A stretch of 39,037 nt of DNA from a virus: the UHGV virus genome UHGV-0175496, one strand, 5' to 3'. The position numbers and the translations under genes are program-made. The notes under the pieces are model-generated. The model ran no database searches and was not told the origin of the DNA. It saw only the letters and a program-made list of their open reading frames with translations. Numbering within the stretch: position 1 is the stretch's first letter; each line of letters starts with the position of its first letter. Positions 1-38,987 of the stretch are shown here, in pieces.

Positions 1-53
1 TTATCAATTTGTTGCAACGAACAGGTCACTATCAGTCAAAATAAAATCATTAT
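1..53. other. Lambda-type attP P' arm fragment with three tandem Int arm-type binding sites (AGGTCACTAT, CAGTCAAAAT, AAATCATTAT); the core/overlap sequence is not inside the window
   Basis: Sequence TTATCAATTTGTTGCAACGAACAGGTCACTATCAGTCAAAATAAAATCATTATTTG matches the lambda P' arm as remembered; it abuts the 3' end of int. Confidence 0.7.
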
Positions 54-1120
54 TTGATTTCAATTTTGTCCCACTCCCTGCCTCTGTCATCACGATACTG
101 TGATGCCATGGTGTCCGACTTATGCCCGAGAAGATGTTGAGCAAACTTATCGCTTATCTGCTTCTCATAGAGTCTTGCAGACAAACTGCGCAACTCGTGA
201 AAGGTAGGCGGATCCCCTTCGAAGGAAAGACCTGATGCTTTTCGTGCGCGCATAAAATACCTTGATACTGTGCCGGATGAAAGCGGTTCACGACGAGTAG
301 ATGCAATTATGGTTTCTCCGCCAAGAATCTCTTTGCATTTATCAAGTGTTTCCTTCATTGATATCCCGAGAGCATCAACATGCAATGTTGTTGGGATGGC
401 AATTTTTACGCCTGTTTTGCTTTGCTCGACATAAAGATATCCATCTACGATATCAGACCACTTCATTTCGCATAAATCACCAACTCGCTGCCCGGTAACA
501 ACAGCCAGTTCCATTGCAAGTCTGAGCCAACATGGTGATGATTCTGCTGCTTGATAAATTTTCAGGTATTCGTCAGCCGTAAGTCTTGATCTCCTTACCT
601 CTGATTTTGCTGCGCGAGTGGCAGCGACAGGGTTTGTTGTTATATGGCCTTCAGCTATTGCCTCTCGGAATGCATCGCTCAGTGTTGATCTGATTAACTT
701 GGCTGACGCCGCCTTGCCCTCGTCTATGTATCCATTGAGCATTGCCGCAATTTCTTTTGTGGTGATGTCTTCAAGTGGAGCATCAGGCAGCCCCCTCCTT
801 ATTGCTTTAATTTTGCTCATGTAATTTATGAGTGTCTTCTGCTTGATTCCTCTGCTGGCCAGGATTTTTTCGTAGCGATCAAGCCATGAATGTAACGTAA
901 CGGAATTATCACTGTTGATTCTCGCTGTCAGAGGCTTGTGTTTGTGTCCTGAAAATAACTCAATGTTGGCCTGTATGGCTTCAGTGATTGCGATTCGCCT
1001 GTCTCTGCCTAATCCAAACTCTTTACCCGTCCTTGGGTCCCTGTAGCAGTAATATCCATTGTTTCTTATATAAAGGTTAGGGGGTAAATCCCGGCGCTCA
1101 TGACTTCGCCTTCTTCCCAT
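50..1120 (-). CDS. int: Lambda-type tyrosine integrase Int
   Basis: 356-aa ORF; translation matches lambda Int almost end to end (MGRRRSHERRDLPPNLYIRNNGYY ... HELRSLSARLYEKQ ... DDRGREWDKIEIK); ATG start and TAA stop checked in sequence. Confidence 0.95.
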   Translation of the reverse strand: MGRRRSHERRDLPPNLYIRNNGYYCYRDPRTGKEFGLGRDRRIAITEAIQANIELFSGHKHKPLTARINSDNSVTLHSWLDRYEKILASRGIKQKTLINYMSKIKAIRRGLPDAPLEDITTKEIAAMLNGYIDEGKAASAKLIRSTLSDAFREAIAEGHITTNPVAATRAAKSEVRRSRLTADEYLKIYQAAESSPCWLRLAMELAVVTGQRVGDLCEMKWSDIVDGYLYVEQSKTGVKIAIPTTLHVDALGISMKETLDKCKEILGGETIIASTRREPLSSGTVSRYFMRARKASGLSFEGDPPTFHELRSLSARLYEKQISDKFAQHLLGHKSDTMASQYRDDRGREWDKIEIK

Positions 1121-2007: not shown

Positions 2008-2805
2008 TTATAGCTCCTTTAATCGAGGCGGTTCTGGTAGAGGCATCCAGTGGGTTACACCGCCAATTGGCTCATCGTCGTCGTACTCCAATGCGGCTAT
2101 ATAGAACCCGTCACGACGAGAATAAGAAATCCCGGACATTACAATGCCATCCGAAACAACAATAATGTCACCCGTTTCTTTCGGCATTCGCTCACTACAG
2201 CTTATCCAACCATCCGGAGTCACCGGAAGCGAGAACGGCAGCACATCTCTGTGAACAAGTTTTTGCTGTGACAGGTTATCCAGAACTTTCTGTACTGCTG
2301 CATCACCGAATACACCAAGCGCATCTGCCATAACTCCTACAACCTGATAAGCCTCAGCGCATACCGTGGATAAACCATCCGGAATTACCGGAGAGTTGCC
2401 GGGTTCTTTAATGTGCAAGCGAGGCTCACCATCTTTTGGCTCAGGCCACTGGCGCTCCATGTTGATCTTCAATTTATCTTCCATAGCAGCGGTAATTTCA
2501 GCATCGCTGATGCCAGCACGGCGCTGTGCATCCCAGAACAGGAAATGCATATCAGCCCACTCGCTGAGATCGTCTGGTTCGGCTGCGGCTTCCAGAGCCT
2601 CTTTTGAGAGGTGTTTCAGTGGACCAATGGGGCCAACGCAGCCAAATGTGGAGTCAGACCATTTGGCATGCTCGTGGCGAATCAGTTCGCGTTCCAGTGA
2701 TGCCAGTGCAATTCGTGCCAGTTCCATTTGTTCGCCACGAGTAAGCCCGTTTTCAAGCGGATTTTTAATGAACAATTCAATACGTTCTTTGGTAATAGTG
2801 GTCAT
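2008..2805 (-). CDS. Phage protein with DUF550-like N-terminus (MazG-like dNTP pyrophosphohydrolase fold) and DUF551-like C-terminus
   Basis: 265-aa ORF; ATG preceded by AAGGA. C-terminal EPIGGVTHWMPLPEPP is typical of DUF551 tails in lambdoid early-left regions. Domain call is from memory of the family, not a search. Confidence 0.55.
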   Translation of the reverse strand: MTTITKERIELFIKNPLENGLTRGEQMELARIALASLERELIRHEHAKWSDSTFGCVGPIGPLKHLSKEALEAAAEPDDLSEWADMHFLFWDAQRRAGISDAEITAAMEDKLKINMERQWPEPKDGEPRLHIKEPGNSPVIPDGLSTVCAEAYQVVGVMADALGVFGDAAVQKVLDNLSQQKLVHRDVLPFSLPVTPDGWISCSERMPKETGDIIVVSDGIVMSGISYSRRDGFYIAALEYDDDEPIGGVTHWMPLPEPPRLKEL

Positions 2806-2815
2806 TTGTTAGTCC

Positions 2816-3571
2816 TTAAACTGCTAGTTGCAATTGCATTTCAAAGCGGTCGCGTTGTTCACAATACGCAAGAGAACCAGGGCTATTGTGTGCCTCAATC
2901 CGTTCTACCATTAATGCTGCGCGTGTCTCTTTACTTGCAGGTGCATAAGCCCCAGACCAGGCTTTATCAATACCGATGTTTCGAGCGACGTTCGTACTAT
3001 CTGCGCTGGCTAAGGGTAATTTTGTGAATATCAGCGGATTTAACATGCGCAATCCATGTAGTTTCGTAACCGGCTGACCATGCCCATCAACAATGTGACG
3101 AATCAGGTCTTTCATTCTGGCTACCGCAAGAGTTGGGCGCTTTACGTCATAGTCGCCACAACTACCGATAGCCACTCGCGGAAACTCATTGCACAAATGA
3201 ATAAATCGCGCGTCACTTTCATTCATGTGCCACACTGGAACGCCAGCTAGTTTTCCGTGAGGCCACTCATTCAGAAGCGCATCATTTTCCTCCTCTCCGC
3301 CATCAATAATATCCGGGATAATGGCAAAATCGAATCCTGGGTGATTCTTCCAGCGAGCAACAAACTCGTAGTAATCGCTCCAGTCGATTTTGTTTTTGCC
3401 AGCTGCTTTCCAGGCGGTGAATGCACCGTTGTCCAGCGCGAACGACTGACAGTATTCAGCCGCGAGATTGATCTGGCCTGAATGCGCAAAACTGATAAAC
3501 GCATGTCGCCCTTTCCATGCTCTCATTGCGCACGTATCAGGAGTAATAGGCCCACCGTGGTAGTGAATCAT
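2816..3571 (-). CDS. TIM-barrel tRNA-guanine-transglycosylase-superfamily protein (DpdA-like candidate); function unproven
   Basis: 251 aa from the ATG at 3569-3571, preceded by AAGGAG. Motifs FALDNGAF (cf. Tgt DSGGFQ), DFAIIPDIIDGG and RVAIGSCG are spaced like TGT barrel strands. No CxCxxC zinc site seen. Confidence 0.4.
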   Translation of the reverse strand: MIHYHGGPITPDTCAMRAWKGRHAFISFAHSGQINLAAEYCQSFALDNGAFTAWKAAGKNKIDWSDYYEFVARWKNHPGFDFAIIPDIIDGGEEENDALLNEWPHGKLAGVPVWHMNESDARFIHLCNEFPRVAIGSCGDYDVKRPTLAVARMKDLIRHIVDGHGQPVTKLHGLRMLNPLIFTKLPLASADSTNVARNIGIDKAWSGAYAPASKETRAALMVERIEAHNSPGSLAYCEQRDRFEMQLQLAV

Positions 3572-3572
3572 C

Positions 3573-3980
3573 TCACTCTCCTTTGATGCGAATGCCAGTA
3601 GCGCGGATTGCATCGATGACTTCAGAAACTTTGTATGCCATTACCGTTTGGTAATCATCGTGAAAATCTGTTCGATGAAGCATGCTGCTACGTTCCGGGA
3701 GCAGTATTTCCCGCGCTTCCAGTTCTGCAATGCGCTTTTTTGCTGCTTCCAATTCATCCAGTAATTCCAGCACGGTAGCCGGATTAGCCTTGGCAACAAA
3801 ATCCCGGACTGGCTTACAATCAATCTCCGCAATGGGTTGATACGATGTGTAGCCATGCTGTCTTGTATAACTACCGTGACGAATAACGAAAAAATCACCA
3901 TTTATTTTTTTAGCCTGCCACTTATCTTCACCGGCTTTCTCTGCCGCTTCACGCAGTGCCTGAGAGTTAATTTCGCTCAC
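3573..3980 (-). CDS. Ea22-like (Ead/Ea22 family) protein
   Basis: 135 aa; N-terminus MSEINSQALREAAEKA and C-terminus GIRIKGE match lambda Ea22 ends, with a different middle. Start codon is GTG in sequence, overlapping the upstream stop. Confidence 0.7.
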   Translation of the reverse strand: MSEINSQALREAAEKAGEDKWQAKKINGDFFVIRHGSYTRQHGYTSYQPIAEIDCKPVRDFVAKANPATVLELLDELEAAKKRIAELEAREILLPERSSMLHRTDFHDDYQTVMAYKVSEVIDAIRATGIRIKGE

Positions 3981-4198
3981 TTCGAACCTCTCTGTTTACT
4001 GATAAGCTCCAGATCCTCCTGGCAACTTGCACAAGTCCGACAACCCTGAACGACCAGGCGTCTTCGTTCATCTATCGGATCGCCACACTCACAACAATGA
4101 GTGGCAGATACAGTCTGGTAGTTCAGACGACGCATTTTTATTGCTGTGTTGCGCTGTAATTCTTCAATTTCTGATGCTGAATCAATGATGTCTGCCAT
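3977..4198 (-). CDS. TraR/DksA-family C4 zinc-finger protein
   Basis: 73 aa with CCECGDPIDERRRLVVQGCRTCASCQ (CxxC-N17-CxxC); ATG verified; coupled to the downstream gene by overlap. Confidence 0.75.
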   Translation of the reverse strand: MADIIDSASEIEELQRNTAIKMRRLNYQTVSATHCCECGDPIDERRRLVVQGCRTCASCQEDLELISKQRGSK

Positions 4199-4296
4199 CT
4201 TCCATTAATCCCTGAATTGTTGGTTAATACGCTTGAGGGTGAATGCGAATAATAAAAAAGGAGCCTGTAGCTCCCTGATGATTTTGCTTTTCATGT

Positions 4297-4780: not shown

Positions 4781-4935
4781 ACAGCTCCCCGTTTATTATT
4801 TATCTCCTCAGCCAGCCGCTGTGCTTTCAGTGGATTTCTGATAACAGAAAGGCCGGGAAATACCCAGCCTCGCTTTGTAATGGAGTAGACGAAAGTGATC
4901 GCGCCTACCCGGATATTATCGTGAGGATGCGTCAT
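4753..4935 (-). CDS. Lambda orf60a homolog
   Basis: [26 protein letters not shown]... about 60 aa; ATG overlaps the exo stop in an ATGA arrangement as in lambda. Confidence 0.7.
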
Positions 4936-5612
4936 CGCCATTGCTCCCCAAATACAAAACCAATTTCAGCCAGTGCCTCGTCCATTTTTTCGATGAACTC
5001 CGGCACCATCTCGTCAAAACTCGCCATGTACTTTTCATCCCGCTCAACCACGACATAATGCAGTCCTTCACGCTTCATACGCGGGTCATAGTTGGCAAAG
5101 TACCAGGCATCTTTTCGTGTCACCCACATGCTGTACTGCACCTGGGCCATGTAAGCCGACTTTATGGCCTCGAAACCACCGAGCCGGAACTTCATGAAAT
5201 CCCGGGAGGTAAACGGGCATTTCAGCTCAAGGCCATTGCCGTCACTGCATAAACCATCGGGAGAGCAGGCGGTGCGCATACTTTCGTCGCGATAGATGAT
5301 CGGGGATTCAGTAACATTCACGCCGGAAGTGAATTCAAACAGAGTTCTGGCGTCGTTCTCGTACTGTTTTCCCCATGCCAGCGCCTTAGCATTAACTTCC
5401 GGAGCCACACCGGTGCAAACCTCAGCCAGCAGGGTGTGGAAGTAGGACATTTTCATGTCAGGCCACTTCTTTCCTGAGCGGGGCTTGGCTATCACGTTGT
5501 GAACTTCTGAAGCGGTGATGACGCCGAGCCGTAATTTGTGCCATGCATCATCCCCCTGTTCGACAGCTCTTACGTCGATCCCGGTACGCTGCAGTATAAT
5601 GTCCGGTGTCAT
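4932..5612 (-). CDS. exo: Exonuclease (Red-alpha)
   Basis: 226 aa; matches lambda Exo throughout ([40 protein letters not shown]...). Confidence 0.95.
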
Positions 5613-6394
5613 GCTGCCACCTTCTGCTCAGTGGCTTTCTGTTTCAGGAATCCAAGAGCTTTCACTGCTTCGGCCTGTGTCAGTTCTGACGATGCGCGAA
5701 TGTCGCGGCGAAATATCTGGGAACAGAGCGGCAATAAGTCGTCATCCCATGTTTTATCCAGGGCGATCAGCAGAGTGTTAATCTCCTGCATGGTTTCATC
5801 GTTAACCGGAGTGATGTCGCGTTCCGGCTGACGTTCTGCAGTGTATGCAGTATTTTCGACAATGCGCTCGGCTTCATCCTTGTCATAGATACCAGCAAAT
5901 CCGAAGGCCAGACGGGCACACTGAATCATGGCTTTATGCCGTAACATCCGTTTGGGATGCGACTGCCACGGTCCGGTGATTTCTCTGCCTTCGCGGGTTT
6001 TGAATGGTTCGCGGCGGCATTCATCCATCCACTCGGTAACGCAGATCGGATGATTACGGTCCTTGCGGTAAATCCGGCATGTACATGATTCATTGTCCTG
6101 CTCAAAGTCCATGCCATCAAACTGCTGGTTTTCATTGATGATACGGGACCAGCCATCAACGCCCACCACCGGAACGATGCCGTTCTGCTTGTCAGGGAAG
6201 GCGTAAATTTCTTTCGTCCACGGATTAAGGCCGTACTGGTTGGCGACGATCAACAATGCGATGAACTGCGCATCGCTGGCATCACCTTTAAATGCCGTCT
6301 GGCGAAGAGTGGTGATCAGTTCCTGTGGGTCGACAGAATCCATGCCGACACGTTCAGCCAGCTTCCCAGCCAGCGTTGCGAGTGCTGTACTCAT
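5609..6394 (-). CDS. bet: Single-strand annealing protein Bet (Red-beta)
   Basis: 261 aa; matches lambda Bet ([43 protein letters not shown]...). Confidence 0.95.
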
Positions 6395-7650: not shown

Positions 7651-7676
7651 TGAAAATGAAACCCGCCTGAGCGGGT
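7651..7676 (-). terminator. Intrinsic terminator just after the orphan gene (stem ACCCGC/GCGGGT, loop CTGA, then U-rich UUCAUUUUCA on the minus-strand transcript)
   Basis: Hairpin overlaps the TAA stop of the 7676..8545 gene; T-rich run follows in the direction of transcription. Confidence 0.5.
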
Positions 7677-8545
7677 TATGACCACTTTTTGTTTGGATTT
7701 CGTTGGTGAGCGTGGTTTACAGGATTATTTGATATACCCCATAACTCTGACTCGCTTATCTCTACACGAGAGAAAGACCTGCTTTCTTTCAGTTCTTTTA
7801 TAAACCTAGAACCTACGATGACATCTATTGTCCCAGAAAGTTCTTGTAAAAGATCTTTGTTTTTTCTGAGGAAGAAAACATCTTCTTTATATTTAATTTT
7901 TACATAGAATTTATTCTGTGTTTTTAATATATCAAAGCATGGCAGATATCTATATCCCTCATGCTTTCGCCACTGCTTAACAATTATAACATCTCTTTCA
8001 TTTACTGCATTAATCAGCCCAAGACCAAGTATAGGTATGAATATTCTATTGTCTGCCGAAAGCGTACAATTATCACCACCAGGCAAATATGTATAAATCA
8101 TGTCGGAATTTTTATACGCATCAACGAATGCACGTAAGAATCGTACATATTTTTGCCATCCGTTTATACCAAATTTACCATATAAGTATTCTTTATTTGT
8201 TAGAAGAAAACTATTTGTATCAGGAGCCTTATCTACAGACCTGTCGATAAGATCTCCAACTACGTTTACAAAGTCAAAGACAGAGTTTAATAAGAACAAT
8301 TGTCTTTCAGTCGGGCGAATTTCAATTATGTAGCCTGGATGAAGACGATATTGCATCTGCTTACGAAGTATACTGAACGCTTGGGTCCGGGCATCTGAAA
8401 GCAACTTCCTGTCGCCATCGCCGTGAGCATTGTTTCTAATAAAACTGATATAATTTGCTAATTTTTCAGCCTCTTTTTTGTGTTTTTTTCGCTCTGATGC
8501 TGAGTCTATTGGTTTTGGTATGGACTTGTAATCAATTTTCTTCAT
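7676..8545 (-). CDS. Orphan AT-rich protein of unknown function in the ral/sieB slot between N and ea10 (candidate exclusion, defence or anti-defence moron)
   Basis: 289 aa from the ATG at 8543-8545 (GAGG 6 nt upstream); the track start at 8557 is 4 codons upstream and overlaps the N stop as ATGA. About 25-35% G+C on sampled lines against ~50% flanks. No transmembrane run or motif recognised. Confidence 0.7.
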   Translation of the reverse strand: MKKIDYKSIPKPIDSASERKKHKKEAEKLANYISFIRNNAHGDGDRKLLSDARTQAFSILRKQMQYRLHPGYIIEIRPTERQLFLLNSVFDFVNVVGDLIDRSVDKAPDTNSFLLTNKEYLYGKFGINGWQKYVRFLRAFVDAYKNSDMIYTYLPGGDNCTLSADNRIFIPILGLGLINAVNERDVIIVKQWRKHEGYRYLPCFDILKTQNKFYVKIKYKEDVFFLRKNKDLLQELSGTIDVIVGSRFIKELKESRSFSRVEISESELWGISNNPVNHAHQRNPNKKWS

Positions 8546-8553
8546 TACGTACC

Positions 8554-8877
8554 TCATGCCAATGGAATGGATTTCCCTTTAACCTTTTGTCTTCCTTGAC
8601 AAGTTATACCGAACTCACTTGGCTTGCTATACCAAACTCGATGATTCTTGCGCTCAATACGTTGCAGGTTGCTTTCAATCTGTTCGTGGTATTCAGCCAG
8701 CACCGTAAGGTCTATCGGATTCAGTGCGCTTTCTACTCGTGATTTCGGTTTGCGATTCAGCGAGAGAATAGGGCGGTTAACTGGTTTTGCGCTTACCCCA
8801 ACCAACAGGGGATTTGCTGCTTTCCATTGAGCCTGTTTCTCTGCGCGACGTTCGCGGCGGCGTGTTTGTGCATCCAT
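8554..8877 (-). CDS. N: Antiterminator N
   Basis: Internal start MDAQTRRRERRAEKQAQWKAANPLLVGVSAKPVNRPILSLNRKPKSRVESALNPIDLTVLAEY..., 107 aa with the arginine-rich boxB-binding motif; matches lambda N. Confidence 0.9.
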   Translation of the reverse strand: MDAQTRRRERRAEKQAQWKAANPLLVGVSAKPVNRPILSLNRKPKSRVESALNPIDLTVLAEYHEQIESNLQRIERKNHRVWYSKPSEFGITCQGRQKVKGKSIPLA

Positions 8878-35157: not shown

Positions 35158-35424
35158 CTATGTTTCCTTTTTATTATTGCTATACATGGTCTTAAGCGTT
35201 TCAAAAACCATTCTCTTAACCATATCAGATTGTTGTTCTGCCATACGCTCTGCATCGTCAATGTAAACGGATGCAGAGCTTTGTTTAGCCAATGATTCTT
35301 CAATCGCTGCAATTATCTCTGAGTTCAGCGATCTGTTATTCATCTTCGCACGCTGTTTAATTTTCGCGTGGAGTTCATGCGGAAGTCTCAAGTGAAACTG
35401 CGCCTCGTCGTATTTGCTGTACAT
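35158..35424 (-). CDS. mnt: Mnt-like ribbon-helix-helix repressor
   Basis: About 88 aa; FHLRLPHELHAKIKQRAKMNNRSLNSEIIAAIEESL and C-terminal DDAERMAEQQSDMVKRMVFETLKTMY parallel P22 Mnt. Confidence 0.75.
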   Translation of the reverse strand: MYSKYDEAQFHLRLPHELHAKIKQRAKMNNRSLNSEIIAAIEESLAKQSSASVYIDDAERMAEQQSDMVKRMVFETLKTMYSNNKKET

Positions 35425-35545
35425 CCTTGATGCCTCACCAGTTGGGTGGAATGGCATCGTAACCTACTGGATAAATACTCAATAGTACCATTTCGGTATG
35501 CAATCACATCATGGTTGCATCATATCATTCGTCTGGAGCAATGAA

Positions 35546-37681
35546 ATGTCAGATATCACCGCAAATGTTGTGGTAAGCATGCCTTCGCAACTCTTCACTA
35601 TGGCGCGTTCTTTTAAAGCTGTAGCCAATGGCAAAATTTATATCGGTAAAATTGACACTGACCCTGTAAATCCTGAAAACCAGATTCAGGTTTATGTGGA
35701 GAACGAAGACGGCTCTCACGTTCCTGTATCGCAACCAATCATCATTAACGCTGCTGGTTACCCGGTATATAACGGACAGATTGCCAAATTCGTTACCGTG
35801 CAAGGCCATTCTATGGCTGTTTATGATGCGTATGGTACACAGCAGTTCTATTTTCCGAATGTGCTGAAGTATGACCCTGATCAACTCAGGTCTGAATTAT
35901 CAGCTCAGGGTGGAGATAAGATTGTTGGTAGTTCGTATGGCGGAACCGTCTATACAGACTACAGTCCATCAGAATTCATTAAGTTTGCAGAATTCACCGT
36001 CCCAACAAGTCTTTCAAACAATAGACAAGCCGTTAAATATATAGACGGATTTTGGTATGTATGGAATGGAACATTTCCATACAATACTGGAACGTCAAAT
36101 CCTGGTAATAATGACACATGGAAATGCGTTGGACTTCTAAATGGTTTTTCGGTTAATGACGCTCAGAACTTTGGCTTCACAGGGGGTATGGACGATGCAC
36201 TTCCAGCGCTAAATGCGATGATTAGAAGCCCATTTTTTGAAATGTTTTTCCCTATTGGAAGTGAAATTAATATTTCGTCTGACTGGAATCTCCGTTCAAA
36301 TTTATATATAAACTTTCACGGTTCAACAATCAACTGGATGGGTGCTGCTTTCTCAAGTTCTGATGTTGTGAATGGTAGCGAGATGGCCATTTTAAATACG
36401 CCAAATTTTTCAGGTGGAACTACAGGGGCACTCGTAAACCTTCATCTGTCAAACTTAAATATTAAAGCAAATGATTACGCAATAGGCATAAGTGCAAGGA
36501 ATATTACAAATTTCTCTATAGAGAATGTTTATGTAGAGAAAGCGCAACGTCAAGGAATTAATGTATCTAATTGCCAGAATGGATGTATTAATCAAATAAC
36601 TCTGAAAGATTGCTCTCCTTTATCTGATAAAGGATTTACTAGCTCACAGCTAGAGAGTTGGGGCGATGGATTGATTGTATGGTATGGAAGCACTAACGTA
36701 TCCATTGATAACATTAGAGTTGAATCAGGAAATAATTCACGAGGAGGTCGCTGCGGTATCTGTATCGATGGTTATGCTCCATCCGGAAAGCCAGATTCAC
36801 GCAATATTTCTGTGAATAACGCTTATGTTTACGGTTATGACAGGCCTATACATACCGAACTATGCGGTATTGTTACCGTAACTAACAGTGTTTTCGAATA
36901 CAACTCAGGCTCTGACACGCATCACTTTTTGCAATGTGGTGTCGTCGTGTGGAATGTCCTTGAAACCACTACTTTTATCAACTGCACGTTTCGCACAGAT
37001 ATGCGGTTTATGAAAAACTCAGGCGCTAAGGCGAAATTCATAAAATGTAATGTGTACAAAACATCAAGCACTGAGCCTATGTTTATAACAGGTACAGAGC
37101 AAACAGGTATAGTTAATTTTGATGACTGCTTACTTTCTCATGCCGGTGGTGAATGGGGGGCTTGGAACTGTTCATTAAGTTTTAATGGTTGCACGATATC
37201 ATCTGATTCTGCTGGATCTGTTATTAATTTTGGTAGCGAATCCATACCAAAAAATATCACTATTGTTAATTCACATCTGTTAAACACATCAATATCAGCA
37301 CTGTTCGCACCTGGATTTACTGAAATTCATCTTTCTAATTCAACAATAAATGGAGATGTTAATTGCGGACCTTCTGCCAGACTTCGTGTAAATTCATGCG
37401 ATATATATGGAGTCGTTACATGCAATAGTGTAATGAGATACAACGGACAGAAACCAAATAAATTAATTTATTTGCAAAATGCAGACCAGCAATACAATGG
37501 CATGTGGCTAGGAACGCGCCCACCACTAGGTGCTAGACCAGATGGATCTGGAGATTGGTTGAGGGGTGATATAGTTTTTAATCTCGACGCCATAGAGTCA
37601 ACACCATTCCAATGGTATTGCGTAACCCCAGGATCGCCTGGAAGATGGGCTGTATCTGGAACTCTTGGCGCAGCTTCTTAA
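35546..37681 (+). CDS. Tailspike with P22-type head-binding N-terminal domain and a distinct receptor-binding domain
   Basis: About 711 aa from ATG 35546 (GGAG upstream). N-terminal ~110 aa ([47 protein letters not shown]...VLKYDPDQ) closely match the P22 gp9 head-binding domain; the rest differs and is rich in N/S/T/G beta-helix-like repeats. Confidence 0.9.
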
Positions 37682-37793: not shown

Positions 37794-38987
37794 TCACTCC
37801 ACCTTCCCATCAAGCCAGTCCGCCCACCATTGCATCATTTCTCTGCGCTTATCGAGATACTGAGCATGGTTGTAAATCCCGCGCACAGATCCGCCATTGG
37901 CATGTGCCAGTTGCACTTCAATAGCATCAGCGGGCCATTCGTGCTCGTTCATAATCGTGCTGAATTCATGCCTGAATCCGTGACCGCTTTCCAGACCCTC
38001 ATAGCCGATTTGTTTGATCACAAGTAGCACCGCGTTCTCGCAGATTGGCTTCTTCTTATCGTTGCGCCCGGAAAAAACAAACTCTGATACTGGTTTAGTG
38101 ATTGAGCTTAGTGTAGTGAGAAGTTCAACCACCTGGTCTGACATCGGGACAACATGAATTTTGCGTCCCTTCATCACACTGGCGTCGATGGTGATAATCC
38201 TGTTTTCAAAATCGACGTTCTTCCATAGCATGGAACGAAGCTCTTTTGTTCTTAGGGCTGTGTAGCGTAAAACTTTGGTCGCAATGAGCGATACGATACT
38301 TCCTGAAAATGTTGCAAGTGCTTTGTTGAATGCCGAGATCTGGTCGGCAGGTAAAAACGGGAAGTTCTTCTTGCGGTATCCCTTCATGGCGTCAGCAAGG
38401 TCAGGTGCCGGGTTATATTTAGCCCTACCAGTGACAATAGCGTAACGGAAAACCTCGCCGCATCTTCTGCGTGCTTTGTTGGCTCGCTCCATTGCACCGC
38501 GATCTTCAAATCTGCGGATTACTTCCAGCAGTTGCATCGGCTCAATATCCTGAATTTCAAGGCCGCCGATGATGGGTAAAATGTCGTCATCAAACATTTT
38601 TGCAAGTTCATTTGCATAGCCTACTGACCAGACTTGCTTCTTGTGCTCGTACCATTCCTTGTAAATCGCACTAAAGGAATTGTTGTTAGACGAAGCCTTT
38701 TTCGCTTTTACCGGATCGATGCCAACCGAGATGTCTTTCCTCGCGGTCCATGCTTTATCCCTTGCCTCTTGCAAAGTCATAAGCGGATATTTTCCGACGG
38801 TCAGGATTTTCTCCTTACCGTCAATCTTGTAGCGAAGCTGCCATACCTTTTTCCCTGATACAGGGACATAAAGGTACAGGCCATTACCATCGAGTAGGCG
38901 GTATGGTTTTTCTTTCGGCTTTGCTGCTTCAATCTGCTTAACGGTGAGCATGGGTAAAAATCCGGTGGGTAAAATTATTTTATCCAC
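37794..38987 (-). CDS. Tyrosine integrase of the P4/DUF4102 family
   Basis: Probable true start is the ATG at 38949-38951 (MLTVKQIEAAKPKEKPYRLLDGNGLYLYV); the track's start codon is GTG. Catalytic HGFRHE and a C-terminal Tyr; 3' end faces the tailspike. Confidence 0.85.
   Translation of the reverse strand: MDKIILPTGFLPMLTVKQIEAAKPKEKPYRLLDGNGLYLYVPVSGKKVWQLRYKIDGKEKILTVGKYPLMTLQEARDKAWTARKDISVGIDPVKAKKASSNNNSFSAIYKEWYEHKKQVWSVGYANELAKMFDDDILPIIGGLEIQDIEPMQLLEVIRRFEDRGAMERANKARRRCGEVFRYAIVTGRAKYNPAPDLADAMKGYRKKNFPFLPADQISAFNKALATFSGSIVSLIATKVLRYTALRTKELRSMLWKNVDFENRIITIDASVMKGRKIHVVPMSDQVVELLTTLSSITKPVSEFVFSGRNDKKKPICENAVLLVIKQIGYEGLESGHGFRHEFSTIMNEHEWPADAIEVQLAHANGGSVRGIYNHAQYLDKRREMMQWWADWLDGKVE

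Follow-up and report, generated by a model that had tools for sequence, protein, structure and literature searches.

A putative singleton DpdA gene in the early accessory region of a lambda/434-like temperate phage

A DpdA family protein in phage genome UHGV-0175496

UHGV virus genome UHGV-0175496, a temperate phage genome of 39,037 nucleotides (nt) that we refer to as the window, carries on its minus strand a gene for a 251-amino-acid (aa) protein that is very probably a member of the phage DpdA family. An initial annotation had proposed that strand motifs in this protein are arranged as in the barrel of tRNA-guanine transglycosylases (TGTs), the fold of the phage DpdA enzymes that insert 7-deazaguanine derivatives into DNA, and that its pairing with a downstream DUF550/DUF551 gene may be meaningful. 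We consider it fairly probable, judging from sequence comparisons, that the gene encodes a singleton phage DpdA that would place low levels of 7-deazaguanine marks in DNA and depend on the host for preQ0.

The strongest support for family membership came from profile comparisons. The 251-aa protein fell within PHROG 887, "queuine tRNA-ribosyltransferase" (E = 5.8e-102), where it is joined by the validated DpdAs of phages 9g (2e-98) and CAjan and by that of Salmonella phage 7-11 (7e-74). Using a profile built from 61 diverse family sequences (33-93% identity), hhalign matched the family to the single DpdA sequences of 9g (98.35% probability, E = 1.1e-14) and CAjan (98.87%, E = 3.2e-17), and a tblastn search with the 9g DpdA reached the gene directly (E = 2e-5). 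The family is large, with 7,710 matches among 8,000 scored candidates in 90% clusters and, at E<=1e-3, 1,520 clusters among representatives at 50% identity.

Other searches count against this assignment. The 251-aa protein had no match in Pfam, NCBIfam, or PADLOC scans, and when the 61 diverse members of the family were scanned, PF01702 and all other Pfam models were likewise unmatched. Searches of PDB sequences with phmmer and with three profile hmmsearches returned only noise. No match was obtained when hhalign was used to compare the family profile with E. coli Tgt, either as a single sequence or as a 16-sequence profile, although the latter is so shallow (all members at least 83% identical) that its null result is no argument against superfamily membership. 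When the predicted structure was compared to the PDB using Foldseek, TGT was not singled out; TrpA and dehydroquinase came first (E ~2e-3) and TGT was 37th.

One explanation for these results is that the protein is an unrelated TIM-barrel enzyme that merely resembles TGT. We regard this as extremely unlikely, since hhalign gives more than 98% probability for both the 9g and CAjan DpdAs, these two fall in the same PHROG as the 251-aa protein, and the active-site motifs follow the order found in TGT, DpdA, and Cap10, an enzyme of the type IV cyclic oligonucleotide-based antiphage signaling system (CBASS). Moreover, the 9g DpdA itself also lacks a match to PF01702, and the MED16 DpdA, which resembles the 251-aa protein with an E value of 2e-43, was reported to match Thermotoga TGT (2ASH) by HHpred at 99.18%. 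The profile searches bear out the proposed relationship for the DpdA family; the models of canonical TGT, PF01702 and E. coli Tgt, were not matched.

Active-site residues and predicted fold

All three strand motifs named in the initial annotation are present: FALDNGAF at aa 44-51, DFAIIPDIIDGG at aa 81-92, and RVAIGSCG at aa 132-139. They include residues that the 61-sequence alignment shows to be invariant or conserved in at least 90% of members and, because this alignment samples a family of 1,520 clusters, the motifs are far from chance. Residues that are invariant in the alignment are Asp47, Ala50, Asp87, Ile89, Asn96, His115, His172, Asp191, and Ser192. Using hhalign and MAFFT alignments, we found that Asp47, His115, His172, Asp191, and Ser192 are common to the 251-aa protein and the 9g and CAjan DpdAs. 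LDNGAF aligns with LDSGAF of 9g, such that Asp47 corresponds to 9g Asp72, and Phe51 is also common to 9g and CAjan. PVWH aligns with PCFH; KLHGLR, which contains His172, aligns with KVHGFG of 9g, which contains the "conserved histidine 196" that separates DpdA from DpdA2 (Hutinet et al., 2019); and SADS, which contains Asp191, aligns with the SCDS of 9g, which contains Asp215 and is also found in CAjan.

These positions have counterparts of established function. Mutagenesis of bDpdA, the bacterial enzyme of the Dpd system, identified Asp95 as the general acid/base and Asp256 as the nucleophile, the equivalents of Asp47 and Asp191. A gating Phe follows the acid/base Asp (Asp95/Phe99 in bDpdA), and the nucleophile corresponds to TGT Asp280 and 9g Asp215. 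Cap10 follows the same pattern, with an Asp pair, a His in hydrogen-bonding contact with the nucleophile, and the Asp nucleophile itself. By these alignments, the 251-aa protein retains the general acid/base (Asp47), the nucleophile (Asp191), the DpdA-signature His (His172), and a second invariant His (His115). One position does not fit as well. Asp87, within IIPD, is invariant in the family, but 9g and CAjan have Ser at this position and an Asp three residues later, in the Asp90 column. The base-binding Asp that follows strand 4 is Asp130 in bDpdA and Asp156 in TGT.

An AlphaFold2 (AF2) model made with the 61-sequence alignment had a mean predicted local distance difference test score (pLDDT) of 92.8 and a predicted template modeling score (pTM) of 0.89. 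It contains eight beta-alpha units and nothing more, and is thus predicted to form the TGT-like (beta/alpha)8 barrel of a phage DpdA. A first AF2 model, which used a shallow alignment with members 65-93% identical to the query, had a pLDDT of 58 and was discarded. Foldseek searches of BFVD yielded 29 matches at E<=1e-3, of which approximately one third are annotated as phage queuine tRNA-ribosyltransferases and most others are unnamed phage proteins. We did not find a C-terminal Zn motif (CxCxxC...H) like that of TGT and bDpdA, or the tRNA-binding extensions of canonical TGT, as the Cys and His columns after Asp191 are all unconserved in the family alignment. The protein ends ~60 residues past Asp191, and only one of its five cysteines (14, 41, 127, 138, and 237), the unconserved Cys237, lies beyond that residue. 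Cap10 likewise lacks a Zn site. Together, membership in PHROG 887, the hhalign matches, the barrel model, and the aligned catalytic Asps uphold the TGT/DpdA-like identity proposed in the initial annotation.

Start codon and gene boundaries

Two minus-strand open reading frames (ORFs) were called mechanically, at 2816-3613 and 2008-2805. In the first of these, the 251-aa reading begins at ATG 3571 and ends at a TAA stop (2818-2816). We take ATG 3571 as the true start because a Shine-Dalgarno (SD) sequence lies 6 nt upstream, because the ATG sits 1 nt past the stop codon (TGA, 3575-3573) of the Ead/Ea22-like gene before it, and because all homologues begin with MIHYHGG and are ~251 aa long. A 265-aa reading from ATG 3613 was rejected, since it is not preceded by an SD sequence and does not agree with the starts and lengths of the homologues. 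The position of the SD sequence within the upstream gene suggests that the dpdA-like gene is translationally coupled to the Ead/Ea22-like gene. On the other side, the DUF550/DUF551 gene starts (2805) 10 nt past the dpdA-like stop. The tight packing first described for this gene, with 1 nt and 10 nt separating it from its neighbors, was therefore correct. The features are listed in Table 1.

Table 1. Features of the dpdA-like gene and its surroundings in the window
Feature	Position	Strand	Remarks
dpdA-like gene, 251 aa	2816-3571	minus	Predicted minimal TGT-fold (beta/alpha)8 barrel; "singleton" phage DpdA class
Codon for Asp47	3433-3431	minus	
Codon for Asp87	3313-3311	minus	
Codon for His115	3229-3227	minus	
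Codon for His172	3058-3056	minus	
Codon for Asp191	3001-2999	minus	
SD sequence AAGGAG	3583-3578	minus	Precedes ATG 3571 by 6 nt and falls within the 3' end of the Ead/Ea22-like gene; read directly
In-frame 14-codon extension of the mechanical ORF	3572-3613	minus	Overlaps the end of the Ead/Ea22-like gene; does not belong to the dpdA-like gene
DUF550/DUF551 gene, 265 aa	2008-2805	minus	
Ead/Ea22-like gene, 135 aa	3573-3980	minus	PF13935, E = 2.6e-17
DksA-like zinc-finger gene	3977-4198	minus	
exo	4932-5612	minus	Small ORFs lie between exo and the DksA-like gene
bet	5609-6394	minus	
Lambda ea8.5-related gene	1612-1911	minus	PF20735, E = 1.1e-15

Predicted activity and measured relatives

How might such an enzyme act? 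By synteny with lambda, leftward transcription from pL would probably express the dpdA-like gene together with the other early genes once the phage infects or is induced. Its product would then bind a 7-deazaguanine base from the host Que pathway, either preQ0 or possibly the amido form, ADG. At a limited number of sites in the DNA, guanine would be flipped out and displaced via a covalent intermediate between Asp191 and the deoxyribose, which would be resolved by N9 of the deazaguanine base. The outcome would be rare dPreQ0 or dADG marks, at tens to hundreds per million nucleotides, a level like that in phages 7-11 and MED16. The likely payoff would be partial protection from restriction or other DNA-targeting defenses.

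Phages with this type of gene have been cataloged previously. Hutinet et al. (2019, Supplementary Data 1) list 76 phages that contain DpdA but no preQ0 or G+ genes, including SPN3UB (YP_007011024), HK106, SfI, SEN1, BTP1, and 7-11, and the similarity network in that study contains a gamma-proteobacterial singleton cluster. The 251-aa protein is 92% identical to the SPN3UB protein, 67% to that of SfI, 39% to that of MED16, and 35% to that of 7-11. On the basis of its sequence, we assign it to the singleton subgroup of DpdA1 in the sense of Hutinet et al. (2019). The gene belongs to this already cataloged "DpdA-only" class and represents no new kind of system. Since the 2019 list already held the class, including the 92%-identical SPN3UB protein, the novelty of the gene was initially overrated. 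Apart from that list, our literature search turned up no work on DpdA of lambdoid phages or prophages.

A 98%-identical gene is present in the GenBank phage Stx1a_EH2115, and E. coli RM14721 (NZ_CP027105) has a copy with 100% identity. Of 5,426 complete E. coli genomes, 204 (~4%) contain a copy that is at least 95% identical. RefSeq labels all 204 copies "hypothetical protein." That label, the existence of truncated or recombinant copies (such as protein P0150), and the very low modification levels reported in relatives would fit a decaying or functionless accessory gene, a relic in a mosaic early region. We give this idea very little weight, since the family comprises 1,520 clusters at 50% identity in which the catalytic Asp and His residues are invariant and length is conserved, the copies in 188 of the 204 E. 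coli records are at least 99% identical, and the gene has a good SD sequence and apparent translational coupling.

Measurements on relatives support low-level marking but also provide the main objections to it. In E. coli, the 9g DpdA alone puts host preQ0 into plasmid DNA. Virion DNA of 7-11 contains 50 dADG per 10^6 nt, and that of MED16 contains 354 dADG and 3 dPreQ0 per 10^6 nt. Several points weigh against the proposed function. The link between DpdA and dADG in 7-11 and MED16 is correlative and the dADG level very low; in MED16, the enzymes tested in restriction assays were not visibly affected; and a third DpdA-only phage, Orion, whose host lacks preQ0, had no modification. Hutinet et al. 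(2019) raised the possibility that the singleton clusters have diverged in function. In addition, bDpdA requires the DpdB ATPase and works with DpdC, and a DpdB/DpdC-type partner was not recognized among the neighbors examined (which were clustered by similarity, not annotated), nor did the PADLOC scan yield a match.

These points raise the possibility that the enzyme retains TGT-type exchange but has a diverged substrate, such that the target is not phage DNA. It could instead act on host tRNA or, like Cap10, on a protein-linked deazaguanine, or it could remove or rewrite marks to counter Dpd-type systems or type IV CBASS. The separate clustering of singleton DpdAs, the unmodified DNA of Orion and the trace dADG of 7-11 and MED16 are all consistent with this alternative, as are the near-neutral isoelectric point of the protein (6.45), which does not suggest an obvious basic DNA binder, and the naming of Cap10 as the top structural match. 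However, the sequence is closest to validated DNA-acting DpdAs, the Orion result is explained by a host without preQ0, neither a Cap9/QueC-like gene nor a CD-NTase gene was recognized among the similarity-clustered neighbors, and the neighbors of distant relatives include a DNA methylase and preQ0-supply genes. We therefore view a diverged substrate as possible but rather unlikely, and favor low-level DNA marking.

A more general proposal is that the DpdA-only enzymes of temperate enterobacterial phages are not bulk anti-restriction modifiers at all, and are either rare, site-specific writers of dADG or dPreQ0 or Cap10-like enzymes with a non-DNA action against deazaguanine-dependent immunity. 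We consider this proposal doubtful. If the enzymes are rare writers, marks made from a host base could imitate the "self" mark that bacterial Dpd-type systems use or could label phage DNA for some other purpose, and direct use of ADG would explain the presence of dADG in 7-11 and MED16 without DpdC. The 2019 list has 76 DpdA-only phages, and of the members of this class that were tested, two have trace dADG and one has none. A lambda/434-type E. coli phage, with a gene carried by ~4% of complete E. coli genomes, is among the most tractable settings in which to study the function of these enzymes. The main practical value of our analysis is for annotation, as this family, with at least 1,500 clusters at 50% identity, is not covered by any Pfam or NCBIfam model.

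Source of the base and the downstream DUF550/DUF551 gene

The initial annotation noted the absence of preQ0 synthesis genes, and tblastn searches of the window confirmed this. Using CAjan FolE, QueD, QueC, QueE, and the putative preQ0 transporter, 9g FolE, QueD, Gat-QueC, and QueE, and E. coli QueA and Tgt as queries, we found no preQ0 genes and nothing below E = 0.1. Any base must therefore be made by the host, and it is because no Que-pathway gene was found in the window that we call the dpdA-like gene a "singleton."

The downstream gene encodes a 265-aa protein with a full-length match to PF04447, "dATP/dGTP pyrophosphohydrolase" (formerly DUF550), at aa 42-137 (nt 2395-2682; 139.9 bits versus a cut-off of 23, E = 3.2e-41). 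This is a MazG-like domain (PMC12884076), in agreement with the dNTP pyrophosphohydrolase-type N terminus described in the initial annotation. A second domain, PF04448 (DUF551), spans aa 199-260 (nt 2026-2211; E = 7.5e-14). Acidic MazG-like motifs are present as ExxE (aa 69-72) and ExxD (aa 82-85), and the protein has a conserved 34-aa N terminus. The activity assigned to PF04447, conversion of dGTP or dATP to dGMP or dAMP and PPi, is known only for the enzyme of the Z-genome phage SH-Ab 15497. The DUF550/DUF551 product is probably a dATP/dGTP pyrophosphohydrolase, and we do not regard it as part of the modification machinery.

To examine whether the two genes stay together, we compared 84 related loci: 80 from IMG/VR, whose DpdA-like proteins are 86-100% identical, and four from annotated phages. 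A DUF550 gene was downstream in ~15 of the 84 and upstream in one, and 13 of these copies were at least 98% identical to the present dpdA-like gene. When the immediate neighbors at 90 loci were clustered by similarity, without annotation of the clusters, they formed 31 upstream and 37 downstream clusters, and this clustering did not reveal a conserved partner gene. Other neighbors, and no DUF550, were found in the annotated phages SPN3UB, SfI, Eeyore, Vibrio D453, Epa33, DMCA, RHph_N3_2, and MED16. In SPN3UB the dpdA-like gene follows the replication genes and is part of the nin region; in SfI it has exo/DUF1317 on one side and a DksA-like gene on the other; and in Eeyore it is flanked by a DksA-like gene and an exonuclease. 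Conversely, the DUF550 stretch matches many phage records, such as P13374, phiON-2011, and VSe13, that have no match to the DpdA-like stretch, and only 107 phage records have a DpdA-like gene.

The junction between the two genes is also informative. The first 34 codons of the downstream gene (2704-2805, minus strand; MTTITKERIELF...) are 91-100% identical in nearly all loci with a dpdA-like gene at least 98% identical to ours (L005-L034). The remainder of the ORF is swapped among these loci and encodes DUF550 plus DUF551, DUF551 only, or unrelated sequence. As the N terminus is kept while the rest is replaced, these comparisons indicate a recombination joint within the coding sequence of the downstream gene. 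We also noted a 298-aa protein (P0150) whose N-terminal half is DpdA-like of the SfI type; past the PVW motif the sequence is unrelated and its C terminus appears DUF551-like by eye. P0150 lacks His172 and Asp191 and appears to be a truncated recombinant copy.

Could the two products nonetheless cooperate? A DUF550 hydrolase that lowers dGTP or supplies dGMP might favor deazaguanine entry, and such a two-gene module would be consistent with the 10-nt spacing on the same strand, with the action of PF04447 enzymes in the base-replacement pathways of Z-genome phages, and with retention of the pair in 13 near-identical E. coli prophage loci. However, adjacency in only ~16 of the 84 loci, nearly all with a dpdA-like copy at least 98% identical to ours, the 37 downstream clusters, the eight annotated relatives without a DUF550 neighbor, the many DUF550 records without a DpdA-like match, and the joint inside the downstream gene all argue against cooperation. 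Known DpdA reactions are post-replicative base exchanges that are independent of dNTPs and require no dNTP hydrolase. A module is therefore very improbable, and the meaning initially attached to the pairing did not survive this comparison. Because the neighbors and genome position of the dpdA-like gene vary among its relatives, we interpret the two genes as independently shuffled lambdoid accessory genes whose pairing appears to be a chance product of mosaicism.

In more distant relatives, the neighbors support a link to 7-deazaguanine supply and DNA modification. In Rhizobium phage RHph_N3_2 (L091 4001-5205), the dpdA-like gene overlaps a gene of the YhhQ/Vut_1 family (PF02592, 1.4e-13). This family, also called DUF165, includes the preQ0 transporter YhhQ. 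YhhQ is named as the preQ0 transporter by Hutinet et al. (2019). In Caulobacter phage DMCA (L089 4705-5726), the dpdA-like gene follows a 98-aa ORF whose match to the QueD/PTPS family (PF01242) is marginal, with an E value of 1.1e-4 that sits at the gathering threshold. In Pseudomonas phage Epa33, the gene after the dpdA-like gene encodes a C5 DNA methylase. The arrangements in RHph_N3_2 and DMCA could be minimal "salvage plus insert" modules.

Genomic setting

Approximately half of the first 25 kb of the window is ~98% like lambda and phage 434, including the integrase, exo/bet, and replication genes, and the late region is P22-like as judged from ORF sizes and order only. The phage thus looks like a temperate E. 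coli phage of the lambda/434 type whose morphogenesis genes resemble those of P22. Minus-strand genes are arranged in the order bet, exo, small ORFs, DksA-like, Ead/Ea22-like, dpdA-like, DUF550/DUF551, ea8.5-like, xis, and int. With the ea8.5-like gene as a marker, this order places the dpdA-like gene between exo/bet and xis/int, in what we identify as the "ea" block of leftward early genes. The Ead/Ea22-like gene is the most frequent upstream neighbor of the present dpdA-like allele, in an upstream cluster that holds 43 loci. Terminator-like hairpins on the minus strand flank the ea block, one at 4258-4276 upstream of the DksA-like gene and two at 1543-1593 after the ea8.5-like gene; in the region, there are 11 terminator-like sites versus 3.3 expected.

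Other features lie outside the ea block. The window contains two tyrosine integrase genes: a lambda-type int (50-1120, minus strand) with xis at the left end, and a second (37794-38987, minus strand) at the right end that contains Arm-DNA-bind_3, Phage_int_M, and Phage_integrase domains. The two would be adjacent if the sequence is circular or if it is a prophage that lies beside another element. The right-end integrase comes just after a 727-aa ORF (35498-37681) that, by size and position only, is a possible P22-like tailspike, and a Mnt/Arc-like repressor gene (35158-35457) is also nearby. Finally, a 293-aa ORF (7676-8557, minus strand) directly downstream of gene N lies in the part of the window with the lowest GC content (0.39). 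It belongs to PHROG 12139 (unknown function) and had no match in Pfam and PADLOC scans; its last 20 aa match what the phage 434 annotation calls a Nun-like transcription-termination peptide.

Comparison with known systems

The 9g and CAjan DpdA1 enzymes have in common with the 251-aa protein the motifs LD(N/S)GAF, PxxH, (I/L)G(S/G), K(L/V)H, and S(A/C)DS. However, they are only 15-19% identical to it and are longer (306-317 aa), with N- and C-terminal extensions. Their genes lie beside folE, queD, queE, and queC, next to DNA polymerase, and 25-30% of G is modified in those phages. The bacterial enzyme bDpdA (PDB 7ui4) is larger still, with 413 aa, four insertions that include the 128-residue Ins8, and a structural Zn site.

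Cap10 (PDB 9ntn) acts on a deazaguanine-conjugated CD-NTase, is encoded with Cap9 and CdnD, and is 9% identical to the 251-aa protein. A Cap9 (QueC-like) or CD-NTase gene was not recognized in the window by tblastn with QueC and PADLOC, or among the neighbors by similarity. For the downstream gene, the comparison is with the MazZ-like enzyme of the Acinetobacter phage SH-Ab 15497, which shares the PF04447 domain. Unlike that Z-genome phage, the present phage has no purZ, datZ, or DUF5664, and its PF04447 domain is fused to DUF551, a fusion typical of lambdoid accessory genes.

The closest relatives are the singleton DpdAs that form group 3 of Hutinet et al. (2019), represented by Salmonella phages SPN3UB, SEN1, BTP1, and 7-11 and Enterobacteria phages HK106 and SfI, together with the DpdA of Pantoea phage MED16. 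All belong to the same family and are ~234-261 aa long. Like the present phage, the phages that carry them lack preQ0 genes, are temperate or lambdoid phages with DpdA among their early or accessory genes, and infect hosts that make preQ0. Nothing substantive separates the present allele from these other singletons, apart from its setting in the "ea" block beside DUF550/DUF551, versus the nin region in SPN3UB and the vicinity of exo and the DksA-like gene in SfI.

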